Shown: positions 1,787 through 36,600 of the stretch, piece by piece
How positions within the stretch are numbered: the first letter of the stretch is position 1
Layout: each line of letters opens with the position of its first letter
Origin: Obrimoposthia wandeli
Lineage: Eukaryota
NCBI GenBank assembly: GCA_977020255.1
Contig: CDROCS010001500.1
Location: 186,001 to 250,000 of the forward strand
DNA length: 64,000 bases
Direction of reading: 5' to 3'
Program-made: the position numbers and the translations under genes
The notes under the pieces: generated by a model
Databases searched by the model: none
Seen by the model: the letters and a program-made list of their open reading frames with translations, nothing else
Told to the model about the DNA's origin: nothing

Positions 1787-1787
1787 T

Positions 1788-6660: not shown

Positions 6661-6900
6661 GATAAACGACCATATGTAAAGGTAGAAATTAACGAATATA
6701 AACTTAAAGCTTTAATTGACACAGGATCAATCGTAACAGTTTTAGACGAATCTTTCTTAAAAACACAACAAAAATTACTTTCTTCTTAAGGAAAATAGTC
6801 AAGTCACAGCAGCAAACGGTCAACCCGTAGATATAATAGGAAAATTAGACTGTCTTTTAAAATAGGAAATAAATTCATAAAAATACCTACAAGAATAATG
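6661..6900 (+). pseudogene. pol: Retropepsin aspartic protease (frameshifted)
   Basis: RPYVKVEINEYKLKALIDTGSIVTV (DTG motif near 6718), with IIGID downstream. Confidence 0.85.
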
Positions 6901-6917
6901 AAAATTGTCCTTGCCAA

Positions 6918-7364: not shown

Positions 7365-7436
7365 AAACTTAAAACTTTAACAGAAAAATATGATGTAATA
7401 TTTGCTAAAAATGAATACGATTTAGGTCGAACAAAT

Positions 7437-9071: not shown

Positions 9072-10053
9072 ATTTAAAATACTATTGGATTGACATGAAA
9101 GAAGATGTAAAAAATTGGTAAAACATATGAAATATGTCTTAAACGGAAAAATACTTTACGTATCACAAAATATCTTTAAAACCAATACCTTAATCATCAG
9201 GCACCATGGAAACTGTTGCCATGGATGTAATGGGAACTGTACCTGAAACGACCCGCGGAAATAGTTTTATGATAGTATTTTCGGATTATTTTTCAATATG
9301 GCCGGAGGCTTTTCCAACTTATGATCATAAGGCTGAAACCATCGCGAAGGTTTTAGTCGAAAAATTATTTTTTACTTTCGGTGCACCCCGAAATTATTAA
9401 CCGACAAAGGTCCTGAATTTATAAATAATGTATTAGCGTCAATAGCTGAAATTTTTCACATTAAAAACTGACGGGTTAGTAGAAAGATTTAATAGAACCC
9501 TCGAAGATAATATTGATGCATCATACACAAACAACAACCAAACAGATTGGGATTTACACATACCTCCATGCCTTTTTTGCATATAGACATCAGTACATGC
9601 ATTCACAGGAGAAACACCTTTTATCTTATGTTCCTCAGAGATCCTCAAATGCCTATTGACCTAAAAATTACTACAACCTACTACACAATACTTTAGAAAT
9701 ACCTGAATATAAAATAGAAATTAGAGAAAAAATAAAACTAACATTCGAAAAAGCTAAACCATTTTTAAAAAACATACAAGAAAATTACAAAGAATATTAT
9801 GATAGAAGAACTAAGCCATCAAATATTAAAAAGCGGAAGTAAAGTGATGATTCACAATCCACAAATTAATGTAGGATTGTCTCACAAATTATCAAAGCCA
9901 TACAAAGGACCATATACAGTCATTAGTACCAACGGAACCAACATAACAGCTAAACTAGATAATGAACCAAAATCAAAAGAAATAAGAGCACATATAAACA
10001 GATGTCGAGAAATACCTGAGGAGAATACAAAAGTAAAAAAGTCACAAATATAA
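9072..10053 (+). pseudogene. pol: Integrase core and GPY/F domain (several frameshifts)
   Basis: Fragments PWETVAMDVMG, TDKGPEF, VERFNRTL and YKGPYTV in different frames. Confidence 0.88.
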
Positions 10054-10128
10054 CTTAAGATCAACTAATGATAATACAGTTCTACAAATGTTGACAATAA
10101 AAACTCACAAAAACAAAATAAAACTATT

Positions 10129-11398
10129 TTGAGTCATCAAACCCGAAATACAATAAAAATATCAATAAAAGAAATTGGTAAAATAATGATGTTATTGATA
10201 ATATATTTTACAATAAAATATAACCTACTGAAAGTAAACGCAACAAACATAAATGACAATCAATCAATCATACAACAACAGACAAATAAATTCGACTCAA
10301 CAACTCATCTCATAAAAAATTTTGGATTAATAACAATACTACCTGAAATCACATCAATAAAGTTAAAAAATTTCTCTTTTACAAACAAAACAGGAAATGT
10401 GCAAATCACACAAACAGATAGAAAACAAAATATAATTATTTCAGGAATAAAATCACAAAAAATATACAATACCATTTTTTAAGAACAGAAACACAATATA
10501 AAATAAGAATTAAGTCGAAATTAAAAACATATAACACTCTATGAAAGAATTATAGAAACTCATATATACCTAGCATCAATATTAAAAACAACAGCAAAAT
10601 ATATATCAAAACATAAAATAATGATAAAATGGGAATTTCAACTAAAAATAGATGACTTAGATAAAGCCCTCATTAGAATTAGATATAGAGGACACAATGC
10701 TAATTTTTGGAAAGACTCAGAAAAACAATTAGAAAATACACAAACTAAAACAAATTTAACCATAGAAAATATAAGATATCCAGAGAAAATAATAATAGAC
10801 AATAGAGAATGCGTAATCACTAATAAACCAATAATGTACAGACAATGGAGTCAAAAGTTTGAAAGTTATAAAAATCTAACAAAATTAACAATTTTAGGAA
10901 ATAAGATATCCAAACTATATCAACCTACAATTTCGTTGGTCAGCAGTAAAAATTAAGAAATATGTTAAAGAAATAACCACAAAACAATTGCTACATACCA
11001 CAACATTTACATCAAAAATTTACAGAGTTACAAATCAAGTTGAAATTACGGAAAAAATAAGAATTAAATTAAAATTAAAAACAACAGAAATAATATCCCA
11101 TAAATCATTTAATGAAAGTTTAAAAGTGCACTATGGTAAACAAGAACATTCAAGGAATGAAAATAAAAAAGAACTTATAATAATAGTTATAGTAATCGAA
11201 ATAATTACATTTATAAATCAAATATCATGGAAAATGTTAATTTTGAAACATACAAAAATGATAGAAACAAAACAACGAAAACACTTTTGTGGGCCCCCAG
11301 GCCCTTTTACTATTTATATTATTCCCAAGGATGAGAATTCTTCAGAATTATCCATAAATACGGTAATAGAAAATAGAAAAAGAAATATAACACAATAA
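10129..11398 (+). pseudogene. Accessory ORF-A: putative type I membrane glycoprotein (stops and one frameshift)
   Basis: 10129-10482 and 10621-10956 share a frame; 10988-11398 is shifted. N-terminal hydrophobic IMMLLIIYFTI, C-proximal hydrophobic LIIIVIVIEIITFI, and several N-X-S/T sequons. Confidence 0.4.
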
Positions 11399-11593
11399 TC
11401 AAATCCTTTTTAGATAAAACCGTTTAAGTAACAAAAAATGTTAGTACTATTATGTAAATCTAAATTAATTAGGAAATAGAATAAAAATTTGATATAAATA
11501 TATTTTTAAAGACGATTTAATGAAATAATATTAAAATAAAATCACCAGGAAACGCACCCTGAAATTTAATAATGGTTATTTTTAGATATAAAA

Positions 11594-11987
11594 ATGAACA
11601 GATTGGCAAAAGTTTGTAAAAAATGCAAAAAATTAGAGAAAAAGATTCGAGATGTTTCCAGACAGCATGACGACTACTATATAAAGATCACAACTCAAAA
11701 TGAATCACTGAAACAGTTAATAAAACAAAGTGTGGAAGAAAAATTGAATAATGATTTAACAATTGACGAACTAGAAGGAGATTGACACATAGTTTGGCAG
11801 AATAGACTATTTAATACAACAAACTTTAAGTCAACGATCAACTATAGCCTCATTAAGAAGACAAATGATGACCTATAGCGACATGATAAACTTTATATGA
11901 CCATTAATCCTACTATCCCAACTAATACAACACTTGATGATGGATATGACTCGGATATGAACATTGGTGAACAAAATTCTGGTTAAA
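11594..11987 (+). pseudogene. Accessory ORF-B: small protein with CxxC and a coiled-coil-like segment
   Basis: ATG-initiated 63-aa ORF (VCKKCKKLEKKIRD...); the frame continues through isolated stops to ~11987. Confidence 0.3.
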
Positions 11988-12153
11988 CTATAACCATACA
12001 TCCTTCTTTTGTACAAATTGTCTAACTTTTGTTAATAAGTTTATTTTCATGACAAATCCCACATACTGCATGGATAAGACTGATATTTTTATAACTTTAA
12101 GACTGTGAAATAATTATATTATTTTATTCAACTAACAAATTGATTAAAGCAGA

Positions 12154-13323
12154 ATGGATAACAATCACCTGGATACGACTCCAGACCAGCTCACTCGGTC
12201 AGATCAAACAAAAAAGCACAGCAAAAATAGAAAGAGGAAAACGGAAAATATGCCAGAAAGGTGGTATTTAGCAAAATTCCTGTATCAAAAGATGCGTCAG
12301 TTTAGCATTGCATACTTTAGAAACAACGGAGGAAGAAAAATGTTTTCAAATCAAACATTTCTTCCCAATAAGTTAAAAATTACCACAGAAGAAAGAACAA
12401 GCGCACTTATTTTTTTCAATGAAAAAAGACCAACCCATATGGCTCTCAGCGAAATATTCCCAGATATTAATTGTGAAAAAATAGATATTCACGTGGCACT
12501 AGGAGTAGCCCATTTAAAAACCAAATCAGATAAGACATTAAACTTTCTGATGATAGGAAATCACACCTACACCTTACAAGCAGCTTAATTAGAAAATCAA
12601 TATAGCATAAAAATAGGAAGAGGACCAAATCTATTATTTATAGAAAAAATAAGAAAAGCAGAAGAACCTCAACAAATAGCCCTTTTTGAATTAAAAAACG
12701 CACAGAAACCAGCAATTTTATTCCTCGATTGCGAAATGGTGATATCAGTAGATAAACATCCAGTTTTAGCAAGTGTTTCTATTATAAATTTCATAGGTAA
12801 CGTAATTATAGATACACTGTGCGTAACTAGAGACAGAGTAAGAAATTACGTTACTAGAATAACTGGACTGTCAGATAGAAAGTTACAAGGATGTAGAGAT
12901 GCTGATGAAGTAATTGAGGAAGTAAAAAACATTGTGTATGGTAACATCATCGTAGGTGTGGGACTAACAAACGATTTAAAAGCTTTACGCCTACAGAAAT
13001 GGATGTTATTCAACATTGTTGATTTAGGAATATCCAAAAGCATAAAATCAGAACTAAATCACAATCACCCAAATATTGGACTCGCCAACATGGTGCGGAA
13101 ATACTTAAATATAGAAACACAAAAAGGAGTCCACACTAGCATGGAAGATGCAAATCACACCCGAAAAATTTTCATAATGAAGGAGGAAATGTTGAATAGA
13201 GAGTTTGATTTGACCGAGGTGATGAATCCACCATCTAGCGAGAACAACCCCAGTTCATCGTTCTCGCATAAGACCGGAAACTCGGAGTCCGGTACACAAA
13301 ACTCCCCGATTTTGTTGGATTAA
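12154..13323 (+). pseudogene. Accessory ORF-C (~390 codons, one internal TAA at 12586-12588) ending in a DEDDh 3'-5' exonuclease of the REX4/ISG20 type
   Basis: 12154-12588 and 12736-13323 are the same frame, separated by a single stop. ExoI LFLDCEMV, ExoII VGVGLTNDLKAL and ExoIII HTSMEDA are all intact. Confidence 0.9.
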
Positions 13324-13527
13324 GGTAGTATTGTTATTATTTTATTCTGTTTTCATTCTTGTCTAAATTTTTAACGATATTTAACCAGACATGATTTTGA
13401 TTAATAAAACATTGATCAGTTATAACATACAAACAACACTAGGTAACAATAGAAACAAGACAAAATAGTTTTACTAATAATTAAAAATTATAATTCTGAG
13501 GACAGAGACTTTTATGACCCGGAGGAT

Positions 13528-14665
13528 TGTTGGGAAAATATATTAGTTATTTGTTTAAAAAAGAAAATTAAAAAATAAAAAAATAAAAGGTAAAAAGGAA
13601 TTAATTAACTGAAAATTAATTGGGAACTTTCCTTAATTAGGGAAAAGTTCTGATTTTAAAATGTGTACTTTGGCATTTTGTCTAATCAATCCCCGACGGG
13701 AAAGCCTGCTCGCCCTACCGGGCTCATCAGGGAGATGGTTTATCCTGACTTCGCGGTGGATTCCGCGAAGCCAGAGATAACAATAATAAAGTCAGGGAAA
13801 AGAGGGAAAGATTCCCCCTTTCATGTGCCGACGAATATCGTCGACATGTGATGTTAGTGTGCGCAAGTGCACAATTCAACACACACACACACTCACTCAA
13901 CTTCCTTACTCACTCACAACTCACTCAACATTAACACTCACATACTCACTTACATACTCATCTCACTACTCACTCACAGCTAAAATGTGTTTATTTGTGT
14001 ATGTGTGTTGATTTTGTTTTTTTCAGTTGTTGGAGTGTGGACATGCCGGATTTTTAGTCAATGGGCAGCGTTTTTGTGCCATTGCATTGGCACAGATTAC
14101 CAGTGGCAGGCAGAGATTATGCACAAGTAACAAGAACAGTATGTGTGCAGCAGTTAGATATTTAAGCTGCACACTACTTGTGACTTTTCAGAATCAAAAA
14201 ATTATCTTACAGAAAACGAAATTTGAATTCCCAAAAATTTTAACAATCAATTTTACCAATTGTGGAACTGATATATTGAAAATTTAACAATTAATTTTAC
14301 CAATTGTGGAACTGATATATTGAAAATTTAACAATTAATTTTATCAATTGTGGAACTGATATATTGAAAATTTAACAATCAATTTTACCAATTGTGGAAC
14401 TGATATATTGAAATTTTACCTATTGTGGAACTGATATATTGAAAATTTAACAATTAATTTTACCAATTGTGGAACTGATATATTGAAAATTTAACAATCA
14501 ATTTTACCAATTGTGGAACTGATATATTGAAAATTTAACAATTAATTTTACCAATTGTGGAACTGATATATTGAAAATTTAACAATCAATTTTACCAATT
14601 GTGGAACTGATATTGAAGTTGATATATTGAATAAATATTATTTACTATTGTGGACTTTTATAACA
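13528..14665 (+). repeat. 3' LTR of element 1 (1138 bp)
   Basis: Preceded by purine-rich GGAGGA (PPT-like). Same termini as the 5' LTR, with fewer copies of the 44-bp unit (~14239-14615). Confidence 0.95.
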
Positions 14666-14899
14666 AATACAAAATTGTATATTTAGATAAAATTTAATTA
14701 ATATTACTTAGTGATTTCACAATACTTTGAATTTTAAGAATATAGAACATTTTAAAATTATATATTTATAGTACTGAGTTTCCTAGGTCTTACCTTTTAC
14801 TAGAGAATATATATTAATAACTACATATTGATTATATGATTATTGTATATTGATTATATGAGACCATTAGAACCCATTAACATATCACGAAGTTTTAAG

Positions 14900-16307: not shown

Positions 16308-16394
16308 CCCCCCACTGTTCTTTAAAACCGTGCATGTGTGTGGAGTGAAATTTCACTCCACACACATGCACAATTTTAAAGGACAGTAGGGGGG
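16308..16394. repeat. ~87-bp near-perfect palindrome centred at 16350/16351
   Basis: GTGCATGTGTGTGGAGTGAAA|TTTCACTCCACACACATGCAC is a perfect 42-bp palindrome, extended by CCCCCCACTGTTCTTTAAAA / TTTTAAAGGACAGTAGGGGGG. Confidence 0.95.
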
Positions 16395-16414
16395 TCCATA
16401 AAAGAGGTGAAGAG

Positions 16415-17470
16415 TTGAATAAGTTGATGACAGATTTGGCTACTGTTGATACAGTTTCATCAGACATCAGCTATTTGGTTGAGGTTGACTTATCAATCCC
16501 TTGCAATATGCATGATAAATTAGATGATCTTCCAGTAGCACCTGTTCATCGATGCCCACCTAATTCAAAGGTTAAGAAATTATTGTTAACACATGAAAAC
16601 AAGTTGAATTATGTTGTGCATTGGCGGCTTCTTCAATTCTACTTAAAGTTGGGAGCGAAAGTTACTCGAATTTATCGTGCTATAAGCTTCAGTCAAAACT
16701 TTGTGTTTAAAGACTATATTGAGAAGAATTCTAGAAAACGTAATTTGGCCACTAGCAAATTCGATCGAGATTTTTACAAGTTAAAAAGTAATAGTCTCTT
16801 TGGAAAAACTGGAGAGGACTTGCGGAAACGTATTTGTCTACGGTTTTACAATGATGAGCGTAAACTAATAACATATACTAACAAGTACAACTTCAAGCGT
16901 AGTTTTACAATTGCAGATGACTTGGTAGCAGTGTTATTAGGAAAACAGAGTATTTGTCTCGATCGACCGAGTTATATAGGTCAAACGGTTTTAGACATTT
17001 CTAAACTCAGAATGTACGAGCTTCAATACATAGAATTAGAGAAATATCGACAAGTATTCAATTGTGAGATCAAAATCGCAGCTGGGCACACTGACTCTTT
17101 CTTTTTAGAATGTAGGAATGTTAGTTTAAATAATCAATTATTACCGGCAATGTTTAGGGACAACTTACTAGATACCCATAAATATCCCGCTAACCATCCT
17201 CTACACTCTATGAGTTTAAAAGACATTATCGGGAAATTTAAGGATGAAAGCGAGGGACAGGTTTCGTATGATGATTGTATATTCCTACGCCCTAAATGCT
17301 ACAGTTTACATGCATCTAATAATACATGTTCAATGAGAGCTAAAGGTGTGGGAAGAAACAATATTATACATGAGGCCAACCGGAAAGTTTATGATACTGG
17401 GTGTATTGAATACTATAATATGACAGTTATGTTTTTATTGATTTGTATTTCTGAATCAAACACTCCGTAA
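16415..17470 (+). pseudogene. polB: Protein-primed family B DNA polymerase, C-terminal half only
   Basis: YLVEVDLSIP...LHD...PVAP; KLKSNSLFGK (motif B, KxxxNSxYGK-like); YIGQTVLDISK; AGHTDSF (motif C, YxDTDS-like, altered); GKFKDE; LRPKCY; RAKGV. Confidence 0.92.
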
Positions 17471-18641
17471 ATAAGCACCGTAGTAGGATTAATTAAAGCT
17501 GCATTGAACTTAATTTCTAGTCGTACATTTCCATCCTTTGGTAGTTGGCATTGGTTTATATCAAAGTCTGGTGCCAAAACAAAGGTGAAGAACGGGCAGC
17601 TATTTTTAAACTCAGTGAAAGAAATACCATTGTTTATATTTTTATCTAGTTGGCCCAAATTCCGAATAATATATTGCGTATAAGCCAAAGCATAAGCGTT
17701 ACCTTCGAAATCTGTTTTATATGTTTCGCGATAATCAGTATTTCTTGAAAGTGTCACTGAACCTACATTAAGATTGTCAAATTGAGTTGCATATGTCGTA
17801 TAATTTCCTAGATACTTTGCAGTTTTTGAAAATAAATTAAAATGAATTTCGGTAATCTTACATCACCAAAAATTTGATCCTTATTAAAAGCTTGTGTACC
17901 CGTACCTAAAAAGTAGGATATAAGTTTAGTTTCTCTAATAGGATAACAAGCATTGTTTTTTTCCATTCCTATATTATGTACCATTAAAACTGATTGCTCC
18001 ATTTTAACTCTTCAGGCATACAATTTTGCATCCAAAATATCAAGTCTAGGTTTTAGAATGTCTGTGCTTATCAAAGAAAAATTCCATTTATTACGTTTCA
18101 AACGAAGATGTACATTAACACCAAGAATTAAATATTTCGGTTGTTCAAAGAAATTCAATATCAAAGACCTACACATTTCGTAAGCTTTAGAACCCGCAAT
18201 CCATTCTTTGCGAGTTGCAACCGTTTTATCATAACCAATGGTTGCCAAATTAGTATTTTGAGTATCAGTACTATAATTCAAAAGACTTTCAATCAAAGCT
18301 TTATGAGCATAGGAAGAATTTCCACCTTCAATTTTGACATTATTAAGAGTAACAATGGCATCATTAAATAAAGAATTAAAGAGATAATTTACAGGTGTTA
18401 CATCGGCATTTTCCTCTAAATTAGTACCATCCCGAATTAATACTTTTATTTGAACATAAAGCAAAGTTTCATTCAAATCTAAATATTCACTATTGGAACC
18501 ATTAATATTAAATTCTAAATTGGTTAAAGTGGTTCCTGAAACTGAGTTAACTAGAAATCTTTCTTCAAAGGAAGCATTATCTACAACTACTTGTGGAAGT
18601 GGTTTATCAAAAATACACAATTCAGTTTTGGCGCAACTCAT
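17413..18641 (-). pseudogene. Polinton major capsid protein (double jelly-roll), split over three frames
   Basis: N-terminus SCAKTELCIFDKPLPQ resembles CxKSELDLF..PPTQ of Polinton/adintovirus hexons; YLDLNETLLYVQIK; C-terminal FTFVLAPD...GNVRLEIKF. Confidence 0.88.
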
Positions 18642-19015
18642 TTTGCAAATATTGTTTCTTCAACTTTCTTACGTTTGTTTATATTAATTTTTTGCTTCTT
18701 TTTCAGTTTAAATCCACTACCTCCCTTGCTTTTATTTGATTTACCTTTTCTAATCAAATTAGCAACTTCAGGTAAAACATTATCAAGTTCATCAAGTGCA
18801 TGCTTCTTAAAAGTTGGTATTAGTTTATTGTCCTTAGATGAAAGGTAATCCTTTCCTAATTTTGATATAAACCGCCCAAGTCTCTTTAAAAAAGGAAAAG
18901 CAAATCTACCTAATGTTCTAAGCCAGCCAGATCCGTATTGTTTACCAACAAAATATGGTAATTCTCCACCTTGTTGGCTTTGACTATAAGCTTCAATTAT
19001 TGCTGGATTCGCCAT
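18638..19015 (-). CDS. Basic virion core-type protein with protease-cleavage-like GG motifs
   Basis: QQGG, QYGSG-WLRTLGRFAFPFLKRLG, KGGSG and a Lys-rich tail; its stop overlaps the MCP start. Confidence 0.7.
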   Translation of the reverse strand: MANPAIIEAYSQSQQGGELPYFVGKQYGSGWLRTLGRFAFPFLKRLGRFISKLGKDYLSSKDNKLIPTFKKHALDELDNVLPEVANLIRKGKSNKSKGGSGFKLKKKQKININKRKKVEETIFAK

Positions 19016-20057
19016 TTTGTTTTCTTAAATGTATTGTTAAACTTGTCTTGGTCCCGTACGTGAAATCTATTAGTTGTCCAGAATCATATCTAATATTTAC
19101 TTCAATATTGTTTATAGAAAAGAGAGCAACTGGAAGATACATTGGTTGATCTATACACATACCGACAGCGTCCACATCTCTAGTTTCATTTTTAGATATC
19201 CATATTGTTCTCAAAATTGGAACTCGTTGTCCTCCTACAAGCGTTGGTTCTATTAAATTAGTATAAATATATAAATAATTAACAGCATTTAAAGGTTTTG
19301 CCTTATTTTTAGCTTTTATGGTTTTTATTGTATGGGTTTCAAAGGTATTTCTGTTTAAACCAAAGTTTTTAGCGAGTTTATCATCAAATGAAACACGTTT
19401 TATATTGCTCTTTACTGTAAACGTTAATTTACCATTTTTTTAATGTTACACATTTATCGAAATATTCACTACATTCGTTCTGTATTAATTTACAGAAATT
19501 CAATTCACTATCTAATTTATAATCTTTTGAAAACATTTTCAGTTCCACTACATACTTTGGTCTCGTTTCAACTAAAAACACTTTTGTTATTCTATCAGGA
19601 ACATTTTTAAACGATTTAGATGACGCTATATCAGATCTTTTCATACCTACTACATGTCCACTGTCAAAACCGAATTGAAGAGCTTCTCTGTCAGATCCAA
19701 ATATAATTTGAATAGGTTTTAAAAAATGTTTTAGTCCATTTTTAAATCTGACTTTGTTTTTTTCATATATTACTTTCACTTCTTTATCTATACACTTGTA
19801 ATAGAACTTTCCTTTACTATCAAACCCTATCACAACTTCAATTGCTTTTTATGATCATCTTCTTTTGTAAACGAAATATGTGAGATTTTTCTGATAGTAA
19901 TTGGAGAATAATAAAAAGAAAATTATGTTAAAGCCACTTCTCATTCTCCTTGGAGATTTATAGGATTTTCCCAATCGATAATAAAGCTACTAGCGTAATT
20001 ATCTGGTTGAGGCTTCGGACATCCGTTACTGGGTAAAACCATATACATAGACTTCAT
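18993..20057 (-). pseudogene. Polinton minor capsid protein (penton), with stops and frameshifts
   Basis: N-terminus MYMVLPSN...PDNYASSF...PINLQGE*EVAL; C-terminus YIYTNLIEPTLVGGQRVPILRTI...YLPV...IEVNIRYDSGQLIDF...LTIHLRK. Confidence 0.85.
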
Positions 20058-20094
20058 ATTACCTAACGTTAGATGCTTTTCGAACTATCCTTTT

Positions 20095-21180
20095 TTAAGA
20101 ACATGGAATTTTTTGAAAAGATGTAGAGGTCTGAACATAACCATGCCATTTACCAAAGTATTGTTTATGTTTACCTGTACCCTTAGATTTTAATATTTTT
20201 TGAATACGGAAAACGCTAGGTTTATTTGATATTACTTGTAGTTCTTCCTCGTAAAATTTACCGTGGACAATAGTATTGTCAGCATCTTTAATAGTATACA
20301 TAATTTGATTACTCTTTTGATCAATTTTACTTATACAAAATATTTCATCGCTCCAATTCTGATCAACGTTTTTAATAAATGGGGTAGAGTTAATTTTCGA
20401 AATTCGAACATATTCGTTTTTCTTATATTTAGCTCTTTTAATATTTTCTTTTTTATTCCTGTCCATCCAAATGTCCATAGAGTTTTTATTAGTAACATCA
20501 ACAGGTCTCATTCCCTTGAGACCTCTATGTTCCGAGTGATTATAGACATGTATTATTTTAGGTAAAACTTGGATCCATTTTTTATTTCCTTCTTTTGTGA
20601 AATACTTTTTTATTCGATCTCTTAAAGTACGATTAAATCTTTCTACTACTGCTGCTTTGTACTGTGAAAACACAGAGTAATGATTTATATTATTTTGTTT
20701 AAATAATGATAGAACTTGCTTATTATAAAATTCTTTTCCTAAATCAGTTTGCACATTTTGTGGAATGTCCTCTTTTAATATTTCTTTAATGGCTTCAAGC
20801 ATAGCTATTGAAGACTTTGCTTTAACGGGAATTGCACGAGCAAACCTGCTAAATACATCAATACATGTTAAAATATATCGATATCCCTTATTAATTGAAG
20901 AATATGGGATCATCTCCATCAAATCCATTTGCTATAAATTATTAGGACCGCTGGTTTTGTAAGCTCTAGTTGGAAACCTTATTCTCATCGGCTTGTTCAG
21001 ACTGTAGGCTAACTGGTTGCTCAAACATTTCTGCGTTTTCTTGTAATTTTGTTTTGTTCTTTTTGCTAATTTTGAAACTCCTGTGTAGCCAATCGGATCT
21101 TTTGGATTGAACCATATCTTCTCCATTACAAAAATTTTAATAGAAAGAAAATTTGAATTTAGGTAAAGAAGGGTTAGCAC
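20095..21180 (-). pseudogene. int: Retroviral-type (rve) integrase with C-terminal chromodomain; one premature TAG in place of a Trp
   Basis: NNL*QMDL, CIDVFSRF, QTDLGKEF and VERFNRTL (DDE core); chromodomain-like FRIQKILKSKGTGKHKQYFGKWHGY. The two track ORFs are in the same frame. Confidence 0.93.
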
Positions 21181-21212
21181 CCATATCTTTAACTGATTTT
21201 ATAAATAATTGT

Positions 21213-21560
21213 TTATGAACGTGTCGCAGCTATAATACTACTCATAATTGAAGCAACAACTGGAATAACAGCCCCTATGAAACCACCATTCTGTTTAAGA
21301 ATAATATTTCGTTTCCTTTTTTTACTTTTTACATTAGCAATATATAGAAGAGTTTTTTTATATTTCTTTAATACATTTTTCCGTTTTCCAACTTTTACTC
21401 TACATAAAACTATATTATACAAAACTTCCAATATATAATCTACAACACAAGATGGAAATGCTTTAAGAATAATCATTCTCTTATGAGAAGAGGCTTTGAC
21501 TAAAGCTTTAAAATAGGGTATGCTTCTTTGTATTTTCTTCATTTTAATAAAAAGGTTCAA
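21213..21560 (-). CDS. Small Polinton virion protein ending in QNGG|FIGAVIPVVASIMSSII (candidate protease-released amphipathic peptide)
   Basis: Intact 115-aa ORF: basic body, then a GG cleavage-like motif, then a hydrophobic/amphipathic C-terminal helix. Confidence 0.65.
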   Translation of the reverse strand: MNLFIKMKKIQRSIPYFKALVKASSHKRMIILKAFPSCVVDYILEVLYNIVLCRVKVGKRKNVLKKYKKTLLYIANVKSKKRKRNIILKQNGGFIGAVIPVVASIMSSIIAATRS

Positions 21561-21722
21561 TTTGAATATTGTTTATATTCGAAGCCATTTACGTTTTTCC
21601 TTTATTTCTAACTACAGATTTGATTAATTTTTTCACTTCTTTTTTCTTAATGATTCTATTTTTTTGATTTCTTAGGCTTTGCTTTACGTTTTACTATCAA
21701 CTTCGTAAAAGGCATTGCGAAT

Positions 21723-22800
21723 TTAACTTTTATAATTGTTCTCTATTTGTTTATAAACAGTTACTCCCTTAGAATTAATTATGTCTGTTAAAACACGTAA
21801 ATCATCTGGGCAAGCTTGTGTTATTATTGTTTAAAAATAATATATAATATACAATATTCAATAATCAAAATTTCCAATAGAACTGTTTCTCAATGTTATA
21901 AATGCAGTAAGAATAACAATATTCGTGGAATGAATCAACAATAATCAAAATGATAAGTTCTTATTTTGGGGAAATGCCTGGACGATGTGTAAATAGCAAT
22001 CGTCCAAATGTCAAAGCTACAAATAAACATTTGTTTGATCGTCTCAGACACTGATTTTTAAATAAATCAAAATAAGGCAGCAAAATGGCTGGGTAACACA
22101 TGACAATGGACATAAAAAACACACACAGAGCCAGGAAAATGGCAGATGGGTCAGAGCGATAATTGTGTCTGTGTGTGGTCATCTAAGGTTCTACTGGTGA
22201 TGAAAATGAGAGCGAATTCTTTGAGTGATAAATATAACTGTTACTTCACGATGTAGACTTGCACTTGCAGCTCACACACTTTTGTAGGTTATAGGTGTGT
22301 GTGTGTAGAATTATTATGAGTCTGATTCCTTGTCAGACCACATCCATAGACTGAGAGAGAGTGGGTAGCTTCTGACTGACGAATACTCAATTATTATTAT
22401 TACATCTTCAACCCGTCGTTTTAAACCAATTTTGTGAGTAATTTTATAAAATGTCACTTTAAATTGACTGTACACCAATTTGTGCTGTTTACAGCATCGT
22501 GGAATGAATCAATCCAGAAAGTTCTTATTTTGGGGAATCAAATCCTTCAATAAATTGTGATATTCTCTTCAACTTGCAATGTAAATAAATTATTATAATC
22601 TGGATTCCTTAGCTTCCTGATACTTATCTTATTATTGTTTTGGTTAATCCGCTTTCCCCTCCTCCACCATGATGCCAATAAATATTTTTGAAACTAGATT
22701 TGAAAATATATTCATTTTGCAACAATTTACATACGAAATGTGTCTTTCCACTTCCACTGGGGCCAACTATTTGAAATACAGCATTATTATTTAACTCCAT
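21723..22800 (-). pseudogene. A32/FtsK-like packaging ATPase (fragmented, with an internal insertion or duplication)
   Basis: MELNNNAVFQIVGPSGSGKT (Walker A) at 22800-22743; FIEGF; YFDLFKN...TFGRLLF; C-terminal CPDDLRVLTDII...VY. Confidence 0.8.
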
Positions 22801-22910
22801 TTCATATACTCTTTCATTTTTTAATATTGTTTATATTATCATAGAAGTTTCATTATTGAAATGTACAATGTTAGAGCTATTGTAGATGAAATACGAAAAG
22901 TAATTAATAA

Positions 22911-23120
22911 TTATTTGGCTATAATTTTATTTATTTGTGTACGATTTCTAAATTCTCGAATAATATGTGATCTAATCAATATTTCAATGTTATCTCTTGT
23001 TATATCATTATTTTTTAATTCTGATAAAATTTGTTTACCCCTAATTTTTCCAGAAAATATTTCGTCGGAAAGACGATCCACTTCATTGTCTCTATTTATA
23101 GTATTATTCATTTGAAACAA
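22911..23120 (-). CDS. Small hypothetical Polinton protein
   Basis: Intact ~66-69-aa ORF between the TBP-like gene and the ATPase, on the same strand. Confidence 0.35.
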   Translation of the reverse strand: MFQMNNTINRDNEVDRLSDEIFSGKIRGKQILSELKNNDITRDNIEILIRSHIIREFRNRTQINKIIAK

Positions 23121-23139
23121 TAAGTTTAAACGGGTTTGT

Positions 23140-23639
23140 TTATAAAAAAGATAACAAGATGTAATAAGATATATTTTCTAAAATCAAATCAACTATGTCT
23201 GGATAATCAAAATTTTTCAATCCCAATATCATAACTTTACCACTGGAAAATATATTTAAACATAGCGGTTTAAACTTCAAATAACTGAAAGCAGGAAAAT
23301 TTCTGGTTCAAACATGCATTCTACTTTCATTTTCTCTGCAGTTTTAAAAAGATTTATCTGTTTCCCAAGATTAGCCGAAATCGTAATTGATTGTATTGCA
23401 GTGATTCGAATTCCAAATGGTAAATTGAACCCAAGCATTGGTATTTTGCATCCCATAACACGACAATTTCCTAAAAGAATTCAATATGAAAATAAAATAA
23501 AAAACTAACCTGTAGGAAAAATAACAACTGTGAAATTGTCATAATTTTCCACATATTGTCTCGGCTTCCATTCATTGAATAGTAAGTACGAAACATCATC
23601 TTCTGTTCTACCTTTATAATTTATATTTACGAGTTTCAT
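23140..23639 (-). CDS. TATA-binding-protein-like gene, 2 exons (23510-23639 and 23140-23470), 39-nt intron, one 1-nt frameshift near 23300
   Basis: Spliced and frame-corrected translation: MKLVNINYKG...TVVIFPTG|NCRVMGCK...IQSITISANLGKQINL...FEPEIFPAFSYLKFKPLCLNIFSSGKVMILGLK, reproducing both TBP direct repeats. Intron GTTAG...TTTTAG (23471-23509) contains in-frame stops. Confidence 0.85.
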
Positions 23640-23880
23640 TAGACTAAAATTGTATTCTGTAAAATTTTCTTTATATATGTCTGAACCTGCTTTTTTATTG
23701 CACGTTTCTTGTAATTATCTTGCAAACCTATTATAATTGGATGATATATTTCTTCCAATCAAATTTGATTTTTAATATAGATTTAGTCCAATCAAATTCA
23801 ATGCTTTAGTTATATTAACCAATGAGATTCATGTCTTGAGACAAATCACAGTAAATGCATTCATATCAAAGACATCAACG

Positions 23881-24334
23881 ATGGACGATAGCCAACGGAT
23901 ATTAAGCGGTGGCGAAAATATAGAAATGTTTGAAGAATCGGATAAGGATATGTATGAAGAAGTGAAACAATATTTCAAATACAAAGTCAGATTCTTGAAG
24001 AAGGCCCAACTGATTGCTTTAGTAAATCTTGTGACAATTGAAAGAAGAAAGTTCAGTTATTATCTATCAAATATTCAAAAACCGGATTTTCAATATCTTA
24101 AACAGAAAGTTGAAAAGACAGTTCCAAATTTTACCCTTCAATAAGAACGAATTTTATATCCGAGGAGCCGATGAAGCATTTCTAGATGACTATGGAAGAT
24201 ATGTTGATATTGATGCGTTTCCGAAAAAGAAGCAATGGACTGTAACAATTCGACTTTATGGTTACAAGAAAGATGAAATGGGAACAAAGTTGCCTATGTG
24301 GAAAATTGAACGTGCTCATATTTCTATGTTTTAA
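23881..24334 (+). pseudogene. Hypothetical Polinton protein (one frameshift), possibly an OB-fold ssDNA-binding protein
   Basis: Two overlapping ORFs join into ~150 aa. C-terminal VTIRLYGY...G...WKIERAHI resembles the end of viral SSB OB-folds (weak). Confidence 0.3.
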
Positions 24335-24715
24335 CTTTTGCATGTAATAAATTGTAATCGGTTTTACTATGTTTCTTTCATTTAATAATCAGTTTTATTT
24401 TTTAAATATTTGTATCTTACATGTATCTTATGTGTATTTTTTATAAACGTTGTTTTTTAATCAGTTTCCTTATTTTAGAATGGATAAGAGATGTGTAGCA
24501 AATTTTTATTATCCAGAAAGAATTTCAAAAGGAAAACTATGTAATATATTAAAGAGGCATCAAATTATACGAGTTATAAATCCTGTGAAAATATCAAAAG
24601 TGGAGAATAAATATCTCATCGAAATTTTAAGATGCAAAAAAATTAAAAGAAAATATAGAGTAAGAACATGATTATAAAATTATTTATAAATTTGAATGTC
24701 TAACAATGGCAAAGT

Positions 24716-27622: not shown

Positions 27623-30600
27623 TCATTCCCCGTCACGCTTGGTCTTCTGTTTTTGGAACTTCTCCAGTTTCTTGGTCAAGGTCATGTTTTCCGATTTGAG
27701 GTCCTCAATTTTGCTTTGGGCTTCGCGGAACTGAAAATAGATTCCGGAATCGTGTTAGCCTATCCCACAACAACAAGAATATTCGATAAAAAATGTATAC
27801 AACTAAAATATGAGCAAATTAAAAACGATTGTAATATTCAGAAGAGTATGTTTCAAATAAAAAAACTCAATATGAACTACGAGTTAGTAGTACTCTGGTA
27901 GTACTCTATCAATCTCATGTGATGGTTAACTCCTGCTGACGAAAAGGGACGTCTTCGCTAGTTGCGTGTCAGCCATCAGCAAACCCAGTATTGCTCAATT
28001 GACAAAGCCCGGTACTTAGGGAGGATTCTCACTTTGAATTGGGCAGTCTTAGGGAGGATTCTCATTTTGAATTGGGCAGTCTTAGGGAGGATTCTCACTT
28101 TGAATTGGACAGACTTAGGGAGGATTCTCACTTTGAATTGGGCAGTCTTAGGGAGGATTCTCACTTTGAATTGGACAGACTTAGGGAGGATTCTCATTTT
28201 GAATTGGGCAGTCTTACGAAAATTGCTGGACACTTTCCTCAGGTCAGAATACAAAATCTCCATCATGCTTGTCTTAGATAAATTGCTTACTTTCACTATT
28301 GTCCTAGATGGTTACTGCCATCAAGACTATTGGTGGAAAACTATGCCGTTCTTTGGGATTCTAAGACGGACAATTCTGCTTATTTTCAGAGTAAATTCCT
28401 CTTAATATTTTGAGAAGCTCCAACTGATTTCCTAATTTCTTTAATTAGCTTTTCTCTTAGCATTTACTTGGAGATACGATCACTGCCATGTTTGCTAACC
28501 AATGGTTGACCTACACCAACTTGCTGTGTAGCAACATATATCGTACACCCCAAACATTGCACTTTAAGGCAGTGTTCAACAGTGCAGGGTTTTCATAACG
28601 TTTAGTTCCTCTGTAAAATTTAAGCGTAAACATGATATTTGATGATCATGCTAATTTAACTTTTATGTCAAGGTGTATTTGTCCCGTAATTTTCAGTTAT
28701 AAACGTAATAGTTTTCAAATGTTATGGTGCCGAATATCATATCCCGATGACTGAAATGTTTTACTAAAGTGCTTCAATGATCAGTATCTGATGATAAAAA
28801 GTAGAAGAAAATGGAGTTCAAAACCTTCTAAGATTACAGTTTGACCAAGAAAATGACAATTATTAATTTTATTGGAAAACTATCCTCAAGTCCTATTCAG
28901 CTGAAACTTGGTGGGTACATATTTTTAAGCAGACCTCATCTTTTGTCTATCTTAGGTTTGTAATACATATTTTGTGTGCACAGAAAATACCGATTTTATC
29001 TAACTTTTTTCTGATGGATCTTACAGTATTGAATTTTCTATTTCGATCTTTGTGTCATTTCTTCAGTACCCAACTTCATAACTTTTTCCTATGTTTTTGT
29101 ATTATTATTAGAGTATTATCATATCAGTAACTTATTATTTCTGTTGCGAAATCTCTCTTACGCGGTTCTCTATGATGAAATAACTTTTTGCATCTAAGCA
29201 CAAATGGGGATATTTTTCATGATATTCTAAAAAAAAATTACAAATTTCTTAAGTGTTTTGATTACAATTCTCATTCTTTTATTGCCCCGAGCATCGTTTC
29301 AAATAATAAATAGCTTAACAAAAAAATACAAATATTATGTTGTAACCCTATTTTGTAAATTACTGGGAATTGAAGTTGTAACAGTTATTTTGATTCACAT
29401 TTCAAAATCCAAATCAGTATAAAATAAAATTATACGGATAACTTTGAAATAATGTGATAACATGATAACATTCAACTCAATAAACTTAGGGCACTCGTTA
29501 TTCGAACTCGAATTTTAACTATATTTCATGTTGTAAAGTATATTCCCAATATCCAGAATTTTGAATTAGCCGATTTCAAAATGAGCTCAACAGCCTATTA
29601 CCGATATGGGCAACAACTTTGGTACTTGTAAAGGGAAACGAGATTTAAAATGAATATTTAAACACAGAATATACTTACATCTTTCTGAATCTTTCGTTTG
29701 GACTGCTTGAGTTCTGTCTCTTGTTTCTCACACTCTTCTGCGATCGACTTGTGGCGCTTCACTTGGCCCTCCAACCGAATCACCTAGGGACAGATTGGCA
29801 TGGTCAGTAGCGCAAAAAGGTACAAATTACACATTCCTGACTACTGTCAATTATATATGAAATATAATAAAGGTTCACAATGCCGGCATTCAGTGCCTTC
29901 ATGATTCAAGCTCTAGCAGAAGTAGAAAACTGAGTAATCAAACAAAGCAATCAAGAATATCGTCTCTGATATGATCGTAAAGGATTATGAGAGGTACAGG
30001 AATTCAGAAATGTACTAAAAAACTCAACAGAGGCAAAATGAGGCTCATGTCAGCATCGAAATTTTTTAACACCACTGAACTTGAACATTTTTCTACTCAG
30101 TAACTTTAACAGTCAGTCCTACAAATAATCGAGGTTGTGCATGGTCGATGTTGTGCATGATCGAGGTTGTCTATGAACAAAGTTGTGCATGATCGAGGTT
30201 GTGCATGATCGAGGTTGTGCATGGTTGAGAATGTTCATGTTTGAGGTTGTGTATGATCGAGGTTGTGCATGATCGAGGTTGTGCATGATCGAGGTTGTGC
30301 ATGATCGAGGTTGTGCATGATCGAGGTTGTGCATGATCGAGGTTGTGCATGATCGAGGTTGTGCATGATCGAGGTTGTGCATGATCGAGGTTGTGCATGA
30401 TCGAGGTTGTGCATGATCGAGGTTGTGCATGATCGAGGTTGTGCATGATCGAGGTTGTGCATGATCGAGGTTGTGCATGATCGAGGTTGTGCATGATCGA
30501 GGTTGTGCATGATCGAGGTTGTGCATGATCGAGGTTGTGCATGATCGAGGTTGTGCATGATCGAGGTTGTGCATGATCGAGGTTGTGCATGATCGAGGTT

Positions 30601-33600
30601 GTGCATGATCGAGGTTGTGCATGATCGAGGTTGTGCATGATCGAGGTTGTGCATGATCGAGGTTGTGCATGATCGAGGTTGTGCATGATCGAGGTTGTGC
30701 ATGATCGAGGTTGTGCATGATCGAGGTTGTGCATGATCGAGGTTGTGCATGATCGAGGTTGTGCATGATCGAGGTTGTGTATGATCGAGGTTGTGCATGA
30801 TCGAGGTTGTGCATGATCGAGGTTGTGCATGATCGAGGTTGTGCATGATCGAGGTTGTGCATGATCGAGGTTGTGCATGATCGAGGTTGTGCATGATCGA
30901 GGTTGTGCATGATCGAGGTTGTGCATGATCGAGGTTGTGCATGATCGAGGTTGTGCATGATCGAGGTTGTGCATGATCGAGGTTGTGCATGATCGAGGTT
31001 GTGCATGATCGAGGTTGTGCATGATCGAGGTTGTGCATGATCGAGGTTGTGCATGATCGAGGTTGTGCATGATCGAGGTTGTGCATGATCGAGGTTGTGC
31101 ATGATCGAGGTTGTGCATGATCGAGGTTGTGCATGATCGAGGTTGTGCATGATCGAGGTTGTGCATGATCGAGGTTGTGCATGATCGAGGTTGTGCATGA
31201 TCGAGGTTGTGCATGATCGAGGTTGTGCATGATCGAGGTTGTGCATGATCGAGGTTGTGCATGATCGAGGTTGTGCATGATCGAGGTTGTATATGATCTA
31301 ATTATGCTCAATAGTGGTTCATTTATACAGCCATGGCCGTGTCTCTTGCCGAAAACCTATGCAATCCAATACCAGTTAGATGAAGCTGCAAGCAAATGTC
31401 AATGGTTATTAGCTCATAGGGAAATGTCAAACGACATAAATGACAGAATTGTCCCAGGTTGTCTACATTATTCTGTTGAATCAGCTTTACGCAGAAATGT
31501 AAACAAAAACTTTAAAAAATGGGTCCAATCAGGTCTAAAATCAAAGCAGTGGTGTGAAAATTGTGTGAATCTGCACAATGTAGTCCTTGAACATTGGACA
31601 GTGACATAGTTACGAGGAGCACGTGAAGCACTGTCTACGATGGTGAGAATTGATTGCGCTTGACTGATATATGGGACTGGATCGATGACGGTTGACGACA
31701 ATTGGAATGGTCGAAACTCAAATGGATGCTCAGGCTCATGGAGAACTGCGGTCAAAGACCTAGTCTAACCCAGTTCCGAGATGATCTTTTTATTGATTAA
31801 TACAAACTAATTTAAAGACAACATAAATATCCTGTTTCGATTGGCGGTAGATCAGGTTAATACGTCGAAATTTAACTTGAATCGGTATAGAGTTATTTTA
31901 TTGTCGTTATTATTATTAGTTCAGATATAAAAAGTAGCACAAAAAACATTCAAAATCACCACAAGCAGCTTGCGACAATGCCATTGGTCGTCTTCATCTG
32001 AGGAGGGACGTGATTGGGACATAAGGTCACAGCCAATCAGTACATGCCTTTCCAGGCGTATTCAAAATTGAGATCAACAAACAGTGACATTTTTTCCATT
32101 GATCAGAATTTGATTGAGCCTCTTAAGATTGTTTATATAGATGATTTTTCGATAAAAATAATTATGATGATAATTTTCGGAATTAATAATAAAGGTCTAA
32201 TTCAAAGTGTATTCTAATTTCTTGGTCACATAATCAAGTGCTGATTGTAGGAAAAAGTTCACTGTTCGTTAGACTAAGTTCGTCTTTCGTGAAAGTGGCT
32301 TTTCCTCATTTAAATTGATAGTTTACATATTTTTAGATTCTCAAAACTCTTTGGCCTTATTTTTCTATACCAAATATACAACTTAACAACCGCATATCCG
32401 TTGATCATATAAATATCCAAAGCATTACATTCAGTGTTACGTTTCATCCGAAAGTTTATGACCTCATAATACGTATAATTTATGTGTGGTGTTTTAAATC
32501 ACTAAAAACGTTTTTTTTTTAAATCATTTAAAAATTATGTTTATTGGATATTAAAAATTATTTTCTCTTATGGACAAAATCAAGACAATTGAAGATAAAT
32601 TGAAAGAAAGAGGAGGCTATATTATTTGGATATAAGAATACTAAAAACCGTATAAAAAAGATTTTCATACATGTAGGTGAAAATATTATTAATTTAAAAA
32701 GTAAACAAAAAGAACATTTGTTGCGTCCTCGATGAAAACATTTCAAAGAAATGTTTTCATTAATAAAGTGATAAGAACATGCAACAGCCATATAAAAAAG
32801 ATTTATCTGATAATTAAAAACTTTACTACTGAAATAAATTGCAATACTAACACATGCGATTATTACATCGACTTAATTCACAATACTTCAGCTTATCAAT
32901 TAAATTGCTTGTCAAATATTTTAAACAAAGCCGTCAGAATTAAATAAAAATTCTAGTACATGTGAACATTTAATTAAGCTCCATTGGCTGCAGAATTGAA
33001 TTGAGCCTGGTGCTCAGAATCTTTACAACAATTGCTAATGGATATAACAAATTGTAATAATGTTGAAAAATTCATGAAGCAGCTAAAGACTTTACTATTC
33101 AGAAATATTACAAAGAACAACGGGAAAATAGGAAAATAGGAAGCGCTTTTGAATAAAAAATCTTAACACTTTATTAAATATATAATTGTTGTAATTTGAT
33201 TTAAATTTACAAATTTAATGACATTTTGACAACCATAGAACGAATTGTTTATATGTTGTTTGGAACAGGTAAAACTTACTACACGTTACATATATTTTTG
33301 GTTTAGTTATGAAAACTAAAAATTGCTTAATTACACTGCAAAATATGAAAATTTTTCTTCTAATTAAAATAAATTTTAGGAATAGTTTTGCATCCTGATT
33401 ACTACAACAAAAATAAATTGTCATCCACCGTCATACTCAAAAATAGCATTTTTAATGTCTATCCATATTTAATTAAGTTATCTCAGTAATTTGTAAAATT
33501 CCTATTCCGGGTGAATAACGAAGAAATCATTAGGGGAGTATGTCAGATATGCGCTTGTTAATTGCATTACTGCATTTACAATAAACTTCAGTTTCGGAGT

Positions 33601-36600
33601 TTTGAAAATGCATTTTTAAAACATAACGATGTTCGGTGTCGTCTGTTGCTGCAGTGGACAAATCGTGTTTGGGTTATCTGAAGACTTTTATGATGTAAAT
33701 TCCGATTTCCACTTCAACAACAAATTACGCCAAGCCGCGGTAAAATGAGCTCGACACGAAAGCCACTTCTACGATTCTCTGAATCAGTTAGCACCACAAC
33801 TAGCCGCGAAGAGGCAGATTAGAATTAGACATTCTACAAAGGGTCAGGCAGTTGGTATAGGGTCGGTAGGTCAATCATAAATTCACCTTAATGTCATAGT
33901 TCTTTACCTGAAACATCGTAAAGAATTAGTAGAAAGAGGCTACGTTCTCTCATTGTTTGATAAAGTCCGGGAATGTACACCGAAAATCTACCCCATTCCA
34001 TGAAAATTGGCGACACATACAAATATTTTAATGGGGCATACATGGTCTGCTTCTAGTGGCACCGCCATCAACGGGTACTTCTAAATGTATTTCTCCTCAA
34101 CATTCGGTACTCCAGCAAAAATTCCAACCAAAATAAAACGTACATGAGATACAAGGCTCGCAACCTTTACGGTTACCCGAAAAGAAGACGTCGTCTATCT
34201 AATAACACAAGTTAATTAAAAATCTTCTTACCGTAAAGTATTTTCGAAAAATTTATATAAAAACCCTGACAAAGAAACGTTTTAAACACAAAGTAAAAAG
34301 TCGATTTTATATTCATACTTCTGTTTAGTTTCTATCGGCACATCTGCATTAAGTTGAATGTTAATAATGTACAAATTTACATATAACTTTTATTAATTTG
34401 GTATACTAAAATCCAATAAAATGAGAATCATAAGAATGATACATAAATTCTGAACTTTCTTTAGAAACTTGAAAATATCTGCTTATACATCTGGGCAGTC
34501 TAAATCACCTGATTTCAATAATGTAGGAAATGTGTGGGAATATTATCAAGTAGCATTATTCTAATTTTGAAGACGTTGAGAGCCACCGGCGTGCAATTTT
34601 AAAGAAAGGAATAAGTTATCTGAAAATGACATACAAGAGCTATACAAAAGCTTTCCAGAAAAGTGCAGTTAAACAAAACCTTTGAAATATTTTTCAATAA
34701 ACATACACATTTATGATATCTCTTACAAATTTAAATTTCAAGTATTTACCGTATAAATTTGTAAAGTTTCATTGAGCTGTATAGTTCAAGCTAAAATAAA
34801 TTACGAGCCATCAATATTTTAGAATTCTTCCGCTTCAATCTCATAGACTAGACTAGAATGAGTCCAAACAAGTTCTCCTAATTATGGCACGAATAGCAAA
34901 TTGGCACAGAAAATCAAATATCCGCATGGGAAAAACTCTGTTTAACCGGATAAGAGTTACAGACTATGGAGTTTAAATTGATTTAAATTCAAACTGCAAC
35001 AGAATGCTGAAATAATTGCAGAAAAAACATTGGGAAAAGGAAGGGAGGATATGAAAAAAATAATTTAAAATCTGATAAACTTGGCATATAAAACAATTTT
35101 ATGTAATTGTAGAATCCTTCCAAACCCAGAGTAAGGCGTAACACATAAAAGACAGATAAATCTCGCAATAGAATGGGTACGACTTCAGATATCGATAAAC
35201 ATTCTTGGATTCTTTAGAAAGCTGGCAACAAACTCTTGATGGACAGGGGTACCTTAGATAAACAAGTTCTCCGTGGTCCCAAATACATACAAGTTTATAT
35301 CAATATTTTGAAAGATAAATTAAAAGGCGGTACACCATTTAAAATCCATGGGGATCCTAAATCAACTGATGATTTAAAAAAACAGGTTACAATGCAGATC
35401 TGATTAATAATGGTGGTGAGAAAGGGGAAACTGCCTCTGAAAATATATTCTTCACCCCATGATCATACTGCGCTAGGCTATGTAAGTATGAAATATATTC
35501 GTAACTTTGCTACATCTAAAAGATATAAATAAACAAACAAGTTTACATAAATATATGTCGATGATCCAAACTAAATACATCAAGTAGATTATTTCTTTGA
35601 ATAATGTGATTAATAAATTCATTATAGAAAAAATATCAGAAATAATTGTTAAAATACAACCGATACTGATTATTTTAGAAATAATAGTTAAGTGATAAAT
35701 ATTACGTGGAAGAAAAGGTCAAAATTAGTGATGTGTTTATGAATATTAGTATAGTCAATTTTTAAAATGGTATATACATCAATAACTTTAGGAGGTTCAA
35801 ACAAATTAATAAAATGTCAAATTAAAATGATACATTAATATTTAGTACAGCTGGAAGTTGTTATCAAATTAAAATAATTATATCGTATGAATAGGAAGTT
35901 ATCAAAAACGTTCTTTTGTAGACATTTCAAAACCCCATCAAAAATAAAGGCACTGAACTTATGTAACAAACAATATTAAGAAAAAAGGTAACAGCTCAGA
36001 GCAAAAATAATTATTTCTCCGACTTCTGTCACAATACAATCGGAAAAGCAATGTTTGCGCATCAAACGTAAAAGAAAGTGCTGTCTACTCGTCACCATGC
36101 CAACCGAAGCCAGCCCCAACATGGCTAATATCATTATTTATTTACGTCATCCTACAACGGGAAAACTCCCTAATCCAATCAGCGTGTACCACGGTGCGAT
36201 CCCAAATTTCTGCAAATACATTTTCCAGCAAATGTCACAGCCAAACAGAAATTAATCCACTGGTACCAGGCAATCAAACAGTATCACACAGTAGATAGTT
36301 TCTTAGACAAACGAATATGGAAGATCAAAGTCATTCAATATACATGAACTGCAAGTGTAAATATTAGATTAATCTGACCTATTTTCCATTGCACAATCTC
36401 ACAAGAACTGACACAACATATATCGTACATTTATTAGACAATATATAGACAGTTTGGCATCTGTTTCTTTTAAAAATCTTTATTTAATTGATACTCAACT
36501 TTATTACTCATAAATAAAAGTAGTAAATTATACGATAAAATAGGCATTTTAAAAATAATTCGATAAAAATGGGATATTTAAACAGAAACGCTGACTTACA

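Follow-up and report, generated by a model that had tools for sequence, protein, structure and literature searches.

TATA-binding protein (TBP) homologs are carried by Nucleocytoviricota and mirusviruses, which mostly encode their own RNA polymerase, and by beta- and gammaherpesviruses. Among the latter, KSHV ORF24 reads a TATA variant with a polar protein face (PMC12529657, available part). In the available part of the account of adintoviruses by Starrett et al. (2021; PMC8502044), TBP is confined to a label in the legend of Fig. 5, for a related virus, with a second legend mention in the preprint, and sections 3.1–3.4 contain nothing on the role, spread or promoters of TBP. The literature on Polintons with TBP, TATA or late promoter, subscription papers lying outside this coverage, gave no account of a promoter or a switch. 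The TBP label in a related virus is thus already known; a late-promoter switch with a matching box appears to be new and is a candidate variant of the viral-TBP strategy of late transcription. Here, we describe a TBP-like gene in a Polinton within 64,000 nucleotides of contig CDROCS010001500.1 of Obrimoposthia wandeli, referred to as the window. It is a confirmed, conserved Polinton gene with a matching candidate late promoter.

The Polinton Fragment and Its TBP Gene

The truncated Polinton spans about 16349 to 24630, where the element match ends (Table 1), and both Polinton hallmarks, pPolB (PF03175) and rve integrase (PF00665), are present. Genes on the minus strand follow the order TBP, small ORF, ATPase, pX-like, integrase, penton, small basic ORF, and major capsid, and the plus strand carries a pPolB fragment and two genes for single-stranded DNA-binding proteins (SSB). 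The initial annotation had placed the TBP gene on the same strand as, and just upstream of, the ATPase/integrase/capsid block; strand and order hold, but the gene does not directly adjoin the block, since an 88-codon ORF lies between TBP and ATPase. The remainder of the ATPase is replaced by other sequence at 21822–22635, and the protease gene, next after the capsid gene in other copies, is deleted. Both genes are present in host copy L278, and the relative L066 matches Pox_A32 ATPase (E 5e-6) and, weakly, Peptidase_C5 (E 0.05). The window SSB has lost its TATA box and start, and its frame is broken. Jelly-roll capsid proteins had no Pfam match in the window or its relatives and were labeled by position and size; the penton and major capsid labels are presumptive, resting partly on motifs. 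Neither terminal inverted repeats nor a target-site duplication were found around this truncated copy, and the label "group 2/Alpha" was dropped because PF03175 matches both host Polinton groups.

The usual TBP neighbor folds as an SSB of the T7 gp2.5/Enc34 type (family model; Z 8.5, rmsd 2.7, 103 aligned). It had no Pfam match and was placed by fold search only; an Atlas match was rejected with a score under 0.9. No profile match linked it to a second SSB-like neighbor family, which resembles giant-virus proteins including I3-like SSB clusters, as a lead only. Elsewhere in the window, an 86-nt palindrome (43-nt arms, 91%) lies at 16308–16393, at the left break of the fragment. A Gypsy-like LTR element with near-identical LTRs occupies 500–14700, its ORFs including a Monjiviricetes-type fusion glycoprotein (PF24664, E 3e-26) and an RNase T-like exonuclease. 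The window also contains a 16-bp array of 73 copies (30128–31298), a 478-nt inverted repeat pair (34457–38714), and an LRRFIP-like exon (48717–49211).

Table 1. Features of the Polinton fragment (window positions)
Feature	Position	Strand	Basis or remark
TBP-like gene, whole	23639-23140	minus	start 23639; intron 23509-23471
TBP-like gene, exon 1 (130 nt; 43 codons plus 1 nt)	23510..23639	minus	ORF reading and copy comparison
39-nt GT-AG phase-1 intron, presumed spliced	23471..23509	minus	copy comparison
TBP-like gene, exon 2, frame break near 23300 in this copy	23140..23470	minus	ORFs, Pfam
Canonical TATA box, 30-38 nt 5′ of TBP start	23669..23677	minus	host-type, presumed early promoter
CCAAT box, TBP upstream region	23740-23736	minus	sequence reading
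Late box, 32 nt 5′ of 88-codon ORF start	23137..23144	minus	motif
Small ORF between TBP and ATPase, no function assigned	22911..23111	minus	ORF
Late box, 34 nt 5′ of ATPase start	22828..22835	minus	motif
Packaging ATPase, 5′ part only	22636..22800	minus	comparison with host copy L278
Late box, 34 nt 5′ of pX-like ORF (about 21542-21213)	21570..21577	minus	motif
Late box, 90 nt 5′ of integrase start	21210..21217	minus	motif
rve integrase, one internal stop	20095..21126	minus	PF00665 E 6.6e-9
Late box within integrase 3′ end, 5′ of putative penton	20162..20169	minus	motif
Putative minor capsid (penton) gene, fragmented	18993..20061	minus	synteny, size; without Pfam match
Late box within penton frame, 100 nt 5′ of small basic ORF (about 19015-18638)	19109..19116	minus	motif
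Late box, 41 nt 5′ of major capsid start	18676..18683	minus	motif
Putative major capsid gene, fragmented	17413..18641	minus	synteny, size; without Pfam match
Late box within capsid 3′ part	17631..17638	minus	motif
Protein-primed PolB, C-terminal fragment	16349..17410	plus	PF03175 E 1.8e-9
T7 gp2.5/Enc34-type SSB, head-to-head with TBP	23776..24334	plus	family model fold
Late-type box and start of truncated SSB paralog	24442..24630	plus	motif, copy comparison

The window copy of the TBP gene is a broken fragment. Its 39-nt intron contains two in-frame stops, its stop codon overlaps the next late box, and PF00352 is the sole Pfam match of each exon-2 piece (14.1 and 16.3 bits, below cut-off), exon 1 by itself giving only a weak, unrelated match. 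The GT-AG intron claimed in the initial annotation is retained as a gene structure in 25 host copies of the window's family (family A), from which we infer splicing: the GT start is found in 25/25, the AG end in 23/25 and a length of 38–40 nt throughout, and exon 1 keeps its 130 nt in 24/25. Furthermore, the metagenome element L087 carries an unrelated 40-nt GT-AG intron at the same codon, and intronless homologs align without a gap across the site. Among the 20 nearest copies (window included), the frame near 23300 is broken in 9, open for at least 109 codons in 10, and closed by an early stop in 1. A single inherited origin of the break was rejected, as the break does not track the copy tree; the broken state is unclustered there (6 changes vs 6.7 shuffled), and the break therefore seems to reflect recurrent slippage, or assembly error, at a homopolymer. 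The open copies imply a protein of approximately 153 aa, in agreement with the roughly 150 aa predicted after frame correction.

Relatives, Phylogeny, and Fold of the TBP Homolog

In the host genome (1.35 Gb), a DNA-level search yielded 1745 candidates, of which 40 were scored and proved 97–100% identical. A PF00352 search gave 19,768 candidates, of which 150 were scored; these are candidates and not copy numbers. The top ten rows are host-type TBP genes, and the following ten loci comprise five family-A copies and five copies of family B, which has an intronless 144-aa frame. An intronless relative in the same genome (L015) matches PF00352 above the cut-off (65.5 bits, E 4e-18), and a family-B query returned 60 homologs among 68 candidates at 38–60% identity. 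The Polinton load of this genome appears very large, with 40,680 ATPase candidates at first look beside those for TBP, again not copy numbers. Among the host loci L001, L002, and L003–L006 are two TBP genes head-to-head on contig C238, along with intronless TBP paralogs that are divergent and changed at Phe positions. The database matches that span the bulk of the host TBP are flatworm proteins, at close to 60% identity.

A search of metagenomes with the TBP alignment recovered 74 loci, of which 69 were kept after five weak ones resembling cellular TBP were set aside. Polinton core genes lie beside TBP in 36 of the 69, 25 of which are among the 31 loci at least 3 kb long, all loci having been selected for their TBP. 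The TBP-linked Polintons that the initial annotation proposed to seek elsewhere are thus represented by these 36 loci; they show at least three gene orders, and its fear that intact relatives might lack the gene was not borne out, since related elements carry TBP. Viral contigs scanned with the TBP alignment gave one NCLDV-like locus, viral-contig scans with two capsid proteins and with an ATPase alignment gave no match, and neither did the phage records scanned. Three contigs of 3–5 kb (L046, L045, L067) carry TBP-SSB pairs without Polinton core genes and possibly belong to larger elements; L046 appears to encode a dual-specificity phosphatase, judging from a motif. Dozens of deeper TBP-like proteins (P0194–P0256), for which known context is absent, share the R, M, and N signature described below and may mark other virus groups.

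In a 92-row tree, from which 32 of 124 rows were left out, a single clade (SH-aLRT 100) unites Polinton TBPs with the deeper relatives that lack context. A 43-row tree recovers this clade at 100/100, with 2.4 changes per site along its stem; two viral-contig TBPs (L115, L116) fall outside it. The Polinton TBP is its own ancient clade; because of this placement, the long stem, and an identity of only about 25% to cellular TBPs, it is not a recent copy of a host TBP, as the initial annotation had allowed, and a grouping with animal TBP is not rejected (p-AU 0.075). The family is under purifying selection, with dN/dS of 0.09–0.45 in 14 diverged pairs (3 further pairs being saturated) and 0.43–1.14 in seven near-identical pairs.

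The gene is a confirmed TBP homolog. The profile match of L015 is joined by the fold of the family-B model (pLDDT 95), whose 144 residues all align with TBP (Z 14.0, rmsd 2.4, 25% identity; Foldseek E 1.2e-8), the window pieces themselves scoring below the profile cut-off. The initial annotation had described a TBP saddle with both repeats; the homology stands, but a full saddle does not, as the N-terminal repeat lacks both helices. No helix is present in residues 1–75 of the family-B model, and the helix segments of this repeat have medians of 18 and 20 aa vs 26 and 32, departing from the canonical two helices per repeat. The sister clade (L091, L099) retains longer segments, and the window's clade has lost both N-terminal helices.

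DNA-facing residues were compared among 135 Polinton-type TBPs, 37 deeper relatives, and 37 cellular TBPs, in yeast TBP numbering. Positions F99, V71, V122, T124, N159, V161, and L205 are invariant in the 37 cellular TBPs. By contrast, L205 is replaced by N and T124 by M in 135/135 Polinton-type TBPs and 37/37 deeper relatives, V122 by R in 133/135 and 37/37, F99 by P in 123/135 and 35/37, and N159 by S in 130/135 Polinton-type TBPs, in which V71 to N and V161 to T are nearly fixed. F116, F190, and F207 are retained in at least 133/135 Polinton-type TBPs, and N69 is also kept; three of the four intercalating Phe are therefore kept, as first annotated, and fixed N, R, M, and S substitutions replace the canonical hydrophobic concave face. 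The DNA-facing surface is thus fixed in a new, more polar state. The acidic C-terminal stirrup for TFIIB is retained, with E186 in 129/135 and E188 in at least 133/135; the TFIIB-contact glutamates are given as E184/E188 in the available part of PMC12529657.

The Proposed Late Box

A motif search upstream of the element genes, as the initial annotation had suggested, revealed a shared TATA variant before late-type genes, here termed the late box. This 8-bp word begins with either pyrimidine (position 1) and closes with a purine (position 8), which follows a C at position 7; an example lies at 22835–22828 on the minus strand of the window. Only one or two positions set it apart from the TATA consensus, which calls for A or T at position 7 (PMC1935006, available part). 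The box was noticed first by reading upstream regions. When 7-mers were counted without bias in 20 loci of confirmed context (139,057 bases), it ranked top, with 116 occurrences vs 29 expected on the TBP strand and 29 on the other strand, in 19/20 loci. Among its single-letter neighbors, only the other purine at the last position is enriched, and C is the sole enriched letter at position 7. Box sites stand 30–45 nt before a start codon in 38 of 134 cases vs 5.8 expected, 18 of the 134 being sites of a background word included in the count.

Gene classes were then compared with 16 near-duplicate loci removed by hand, counting box cores within 125 nt of the start. The box precedes 86/98 virion, packaging, integrase, PLA2, and exonuclease-like starts (ATPase 21/22, MCP 9/9, penton 10/11, integrase 11/12, pX 12/15, PX2 6/6, PLA2 6/7, exonuclease-like 8/11, protease 3/5) and 7/71 TBP and SSB starts (TBP 5/51, SSB 2/17 and 0/3). 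The contrast has p = 1e-25, a value that overstates the case, since the elements are related and their genes were classed once the data were in view. The box also occurs at 1/2 pPolB starts and at the SSB paralog, which blurs a clean early/late split. In a second host Polinton group (PF21738), it precedes 0/31 ORFs vs 61/160 in TBP-bearing loci, and no TBP was found in this group (best E 0.025; one lineage, five partial copies). The same group has PLA2 and integrase in one reading frame (L248:144–1394, L253:7336–8634).

The window element has nine minus-strand box sites, six of them 32–100 nt 5′ of a recognizable start or upstream of the penton gene. Words resembling initiators, and boxes that are mostly canonical, stand upstream of TBP genes, where C follows the box stem in only 3/31. 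A precedes the box core in 3/66 sites. Sites embedded in ORFs use two different frames (26 and 21 sites) and frequently stand roughly 100 nt ahead of the stop; several sites overlap the stop codon of the upstream gene, and some have no co-oriented upstream gene (e.g., L066:1953). A conserved ATPase tail peptide (alignment A2) coincides with an embedded late box, where DNA constraint may shape the protein. The box starts with C in 38 and T in 34 cases in the helix-keeping elements L091–L104, whose GC content is higher, and with C in 19 and T in 80 cases in the helix-less clade (L044–L087, L278, L280).

Proposed Role and Comparison With Known Systems

The Polinton TBP is probably, at roughly 0.68, the element's late-promoter factor, made early and reading late promoters with host RNA polymerase II, similar to the herpesvirus vTBP but minimal. 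Host TFIID would transcribe TBP and SSB from canonical promoters early, and the viral TBP would then bind the box at the virion, packaging, and integrase genes and recruit TFIIB via its retained stirrup, bringing in host polymerase. In canonical TBP, the N-terminal repeat reads the 3′ end of the TATA box, and its helices provide surfaces used by TAF1, Brf1, and Mot1. The lost Phe and the new Arg and Met lie in this repeat, where the box departs from the consensus, and loss of the helices may free the viral TBP from these host factors. Host TBP would read the box poorly owing to C at position 7, a place at which canonical TBP can take C-G only through Hoogsteen pairs, whereby a clash with a leucine is avoided (PMC4402545, available part). 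The promoter-specificity role for late and structural genes suggested in the initial annotation finds support in the box before those genes; a switch of host polymerase to late genes is likely because nearly all capsid and packaging genes follow the shared box and the TBP gene rarely does.

Alternatively, host TBP or one of its host paralogs could read the box as a weak TATA, and the viral TBP could act as a decoy or repressor, either titrating TFIIB or blocking promoters of the host or early ones. The box does fit the consensus except at positions 1 and 7 (PMC1935006, available part), canonical TBP binds the C-7 variant in crystals (1qn3; PMC4402545, available part), the host has divergent TBP paralogs, and the acidic stirrup is retained. 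We nevertheless consider this unlikely: a decoy, which the initial annotation had also entertained, does not need a fixed new DNA face and is disfavored because the DNA-facing residues are fixed in their new state and not left to drift, C alone is enriched at position 7, and canonical boxes serve TBP and SSB whereas the variant serves the rest. It is rather doubtful, too, that the viral TBP, although binding the box, is something other than a plain Pol II activator: a protein dependent on additional factors of viral or helper-virus origin, a partner of Brf/Pol III, or a mark on DNA for its replication or packaging. In the model, the N-terminal sheet lies uncovered by helices and may require a partner, herpes vTBP depends on five other viral proteins (PMC12529657, available part), TBP often adjoins an SSB or exonuclease-like gene, and the divergent Giardia TBP binds single-stranded DNA (PMC12209930, available part). 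However, the box is strand-specific and at TATA distance from start codons, the spliceosomal-type intron points to nuclear Pol II, and no RNA polymerase was noticed in the ORF lists of long contigs.

The box might also have nothing to do with TBP and instead serve the preceding gene as a signal for polyadenylation or termination, or else encode a protein motif; it resembles variant poly(A) hexamers, the genes are co-oriented and tightly packed, and overlaps with upstream stop codons occur. This is quite improbable, as position 1 rarely holds the letter found in the canonical poly(A) signal (the 3/66 noted above), sites inside ORFs fall in two frames and often well before the stop, some sites follow no co-oriented gene, and spacing is tied to the next start codon. 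Decay of a captured host TBP as cargo, for which the broken window copy and the p-AU value could be cited, is highly improbable and already contradicted at the family level by the separate clade, purifying selection, fixed substitutions, and multiple gene orders.

Beyond the late-promoter role itself, chances appear even that a broad animal Polinton lineage runs a true early-to-late program in which a single protein is the switch: a viral TBP smaller than any other, without the surface that host regulators grip, recoded to its own box, and plugged into host TFIIB. If so, late genes would be recognizable by the box in every element of this kind, and copies that carry TBP could drive, in trans, those in which TBP is defective. 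A dedicated late promoter, together with the protein that reads it, would directly attest to a viral life cycle in animal Polintons and bear on how they time virion genes without an RNA polymerase; the protein would also be a natural altered-specificity TBP whose fixed changes are mappable to box positions.

The element shares pPolB, rve integrase, ATPase, and a putative capsid block with Polintons/Mavericks/adintoviruses (Starrett et al., 2021; PMC8502044, available part). Nucleocytoviricota and mirusvirus TBPs are likewise viral homologs, with structural matches in BFVD (best E 8.5e-8), but the two viral-contig TBPs in the tree fall outside the Polinton clade. With the cellular TBP/TRF family (PF00352), the Polinton TBP shares the fold, three Phe, the C-terminal stirrup, and N69, and differs in seven replaced face residues and, in the window's clade, in the absent N-terminal helices. 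The beta- and gammaherpesvirus vTBPs (KSHV ORF24, HCMV UL87, EBV BcRF1) resemble it in combining a viral TBP fold, whose DNA face is polar and rich in Asn, with late genes under a TATA variant, early genes under host-type promoters, and the use of host Pol II (PMC12529657, available part), the promoter likeness here being one of sequence. By contrast, the Polinton protein is a 144–170 aa core without the Pol II-binding extension, keeps the TFIIB glutamates that are absent from ORF24, and has lost one Phe that ORF24 needs, according to the same part of that source. The likeness is best regarded as an analogy because the fold match to BcRF1 is weak (E 6e-3), and, if the proposed role is true, Polintons would represent a second, apparently independent route to the herpesvirus solution for late genes.
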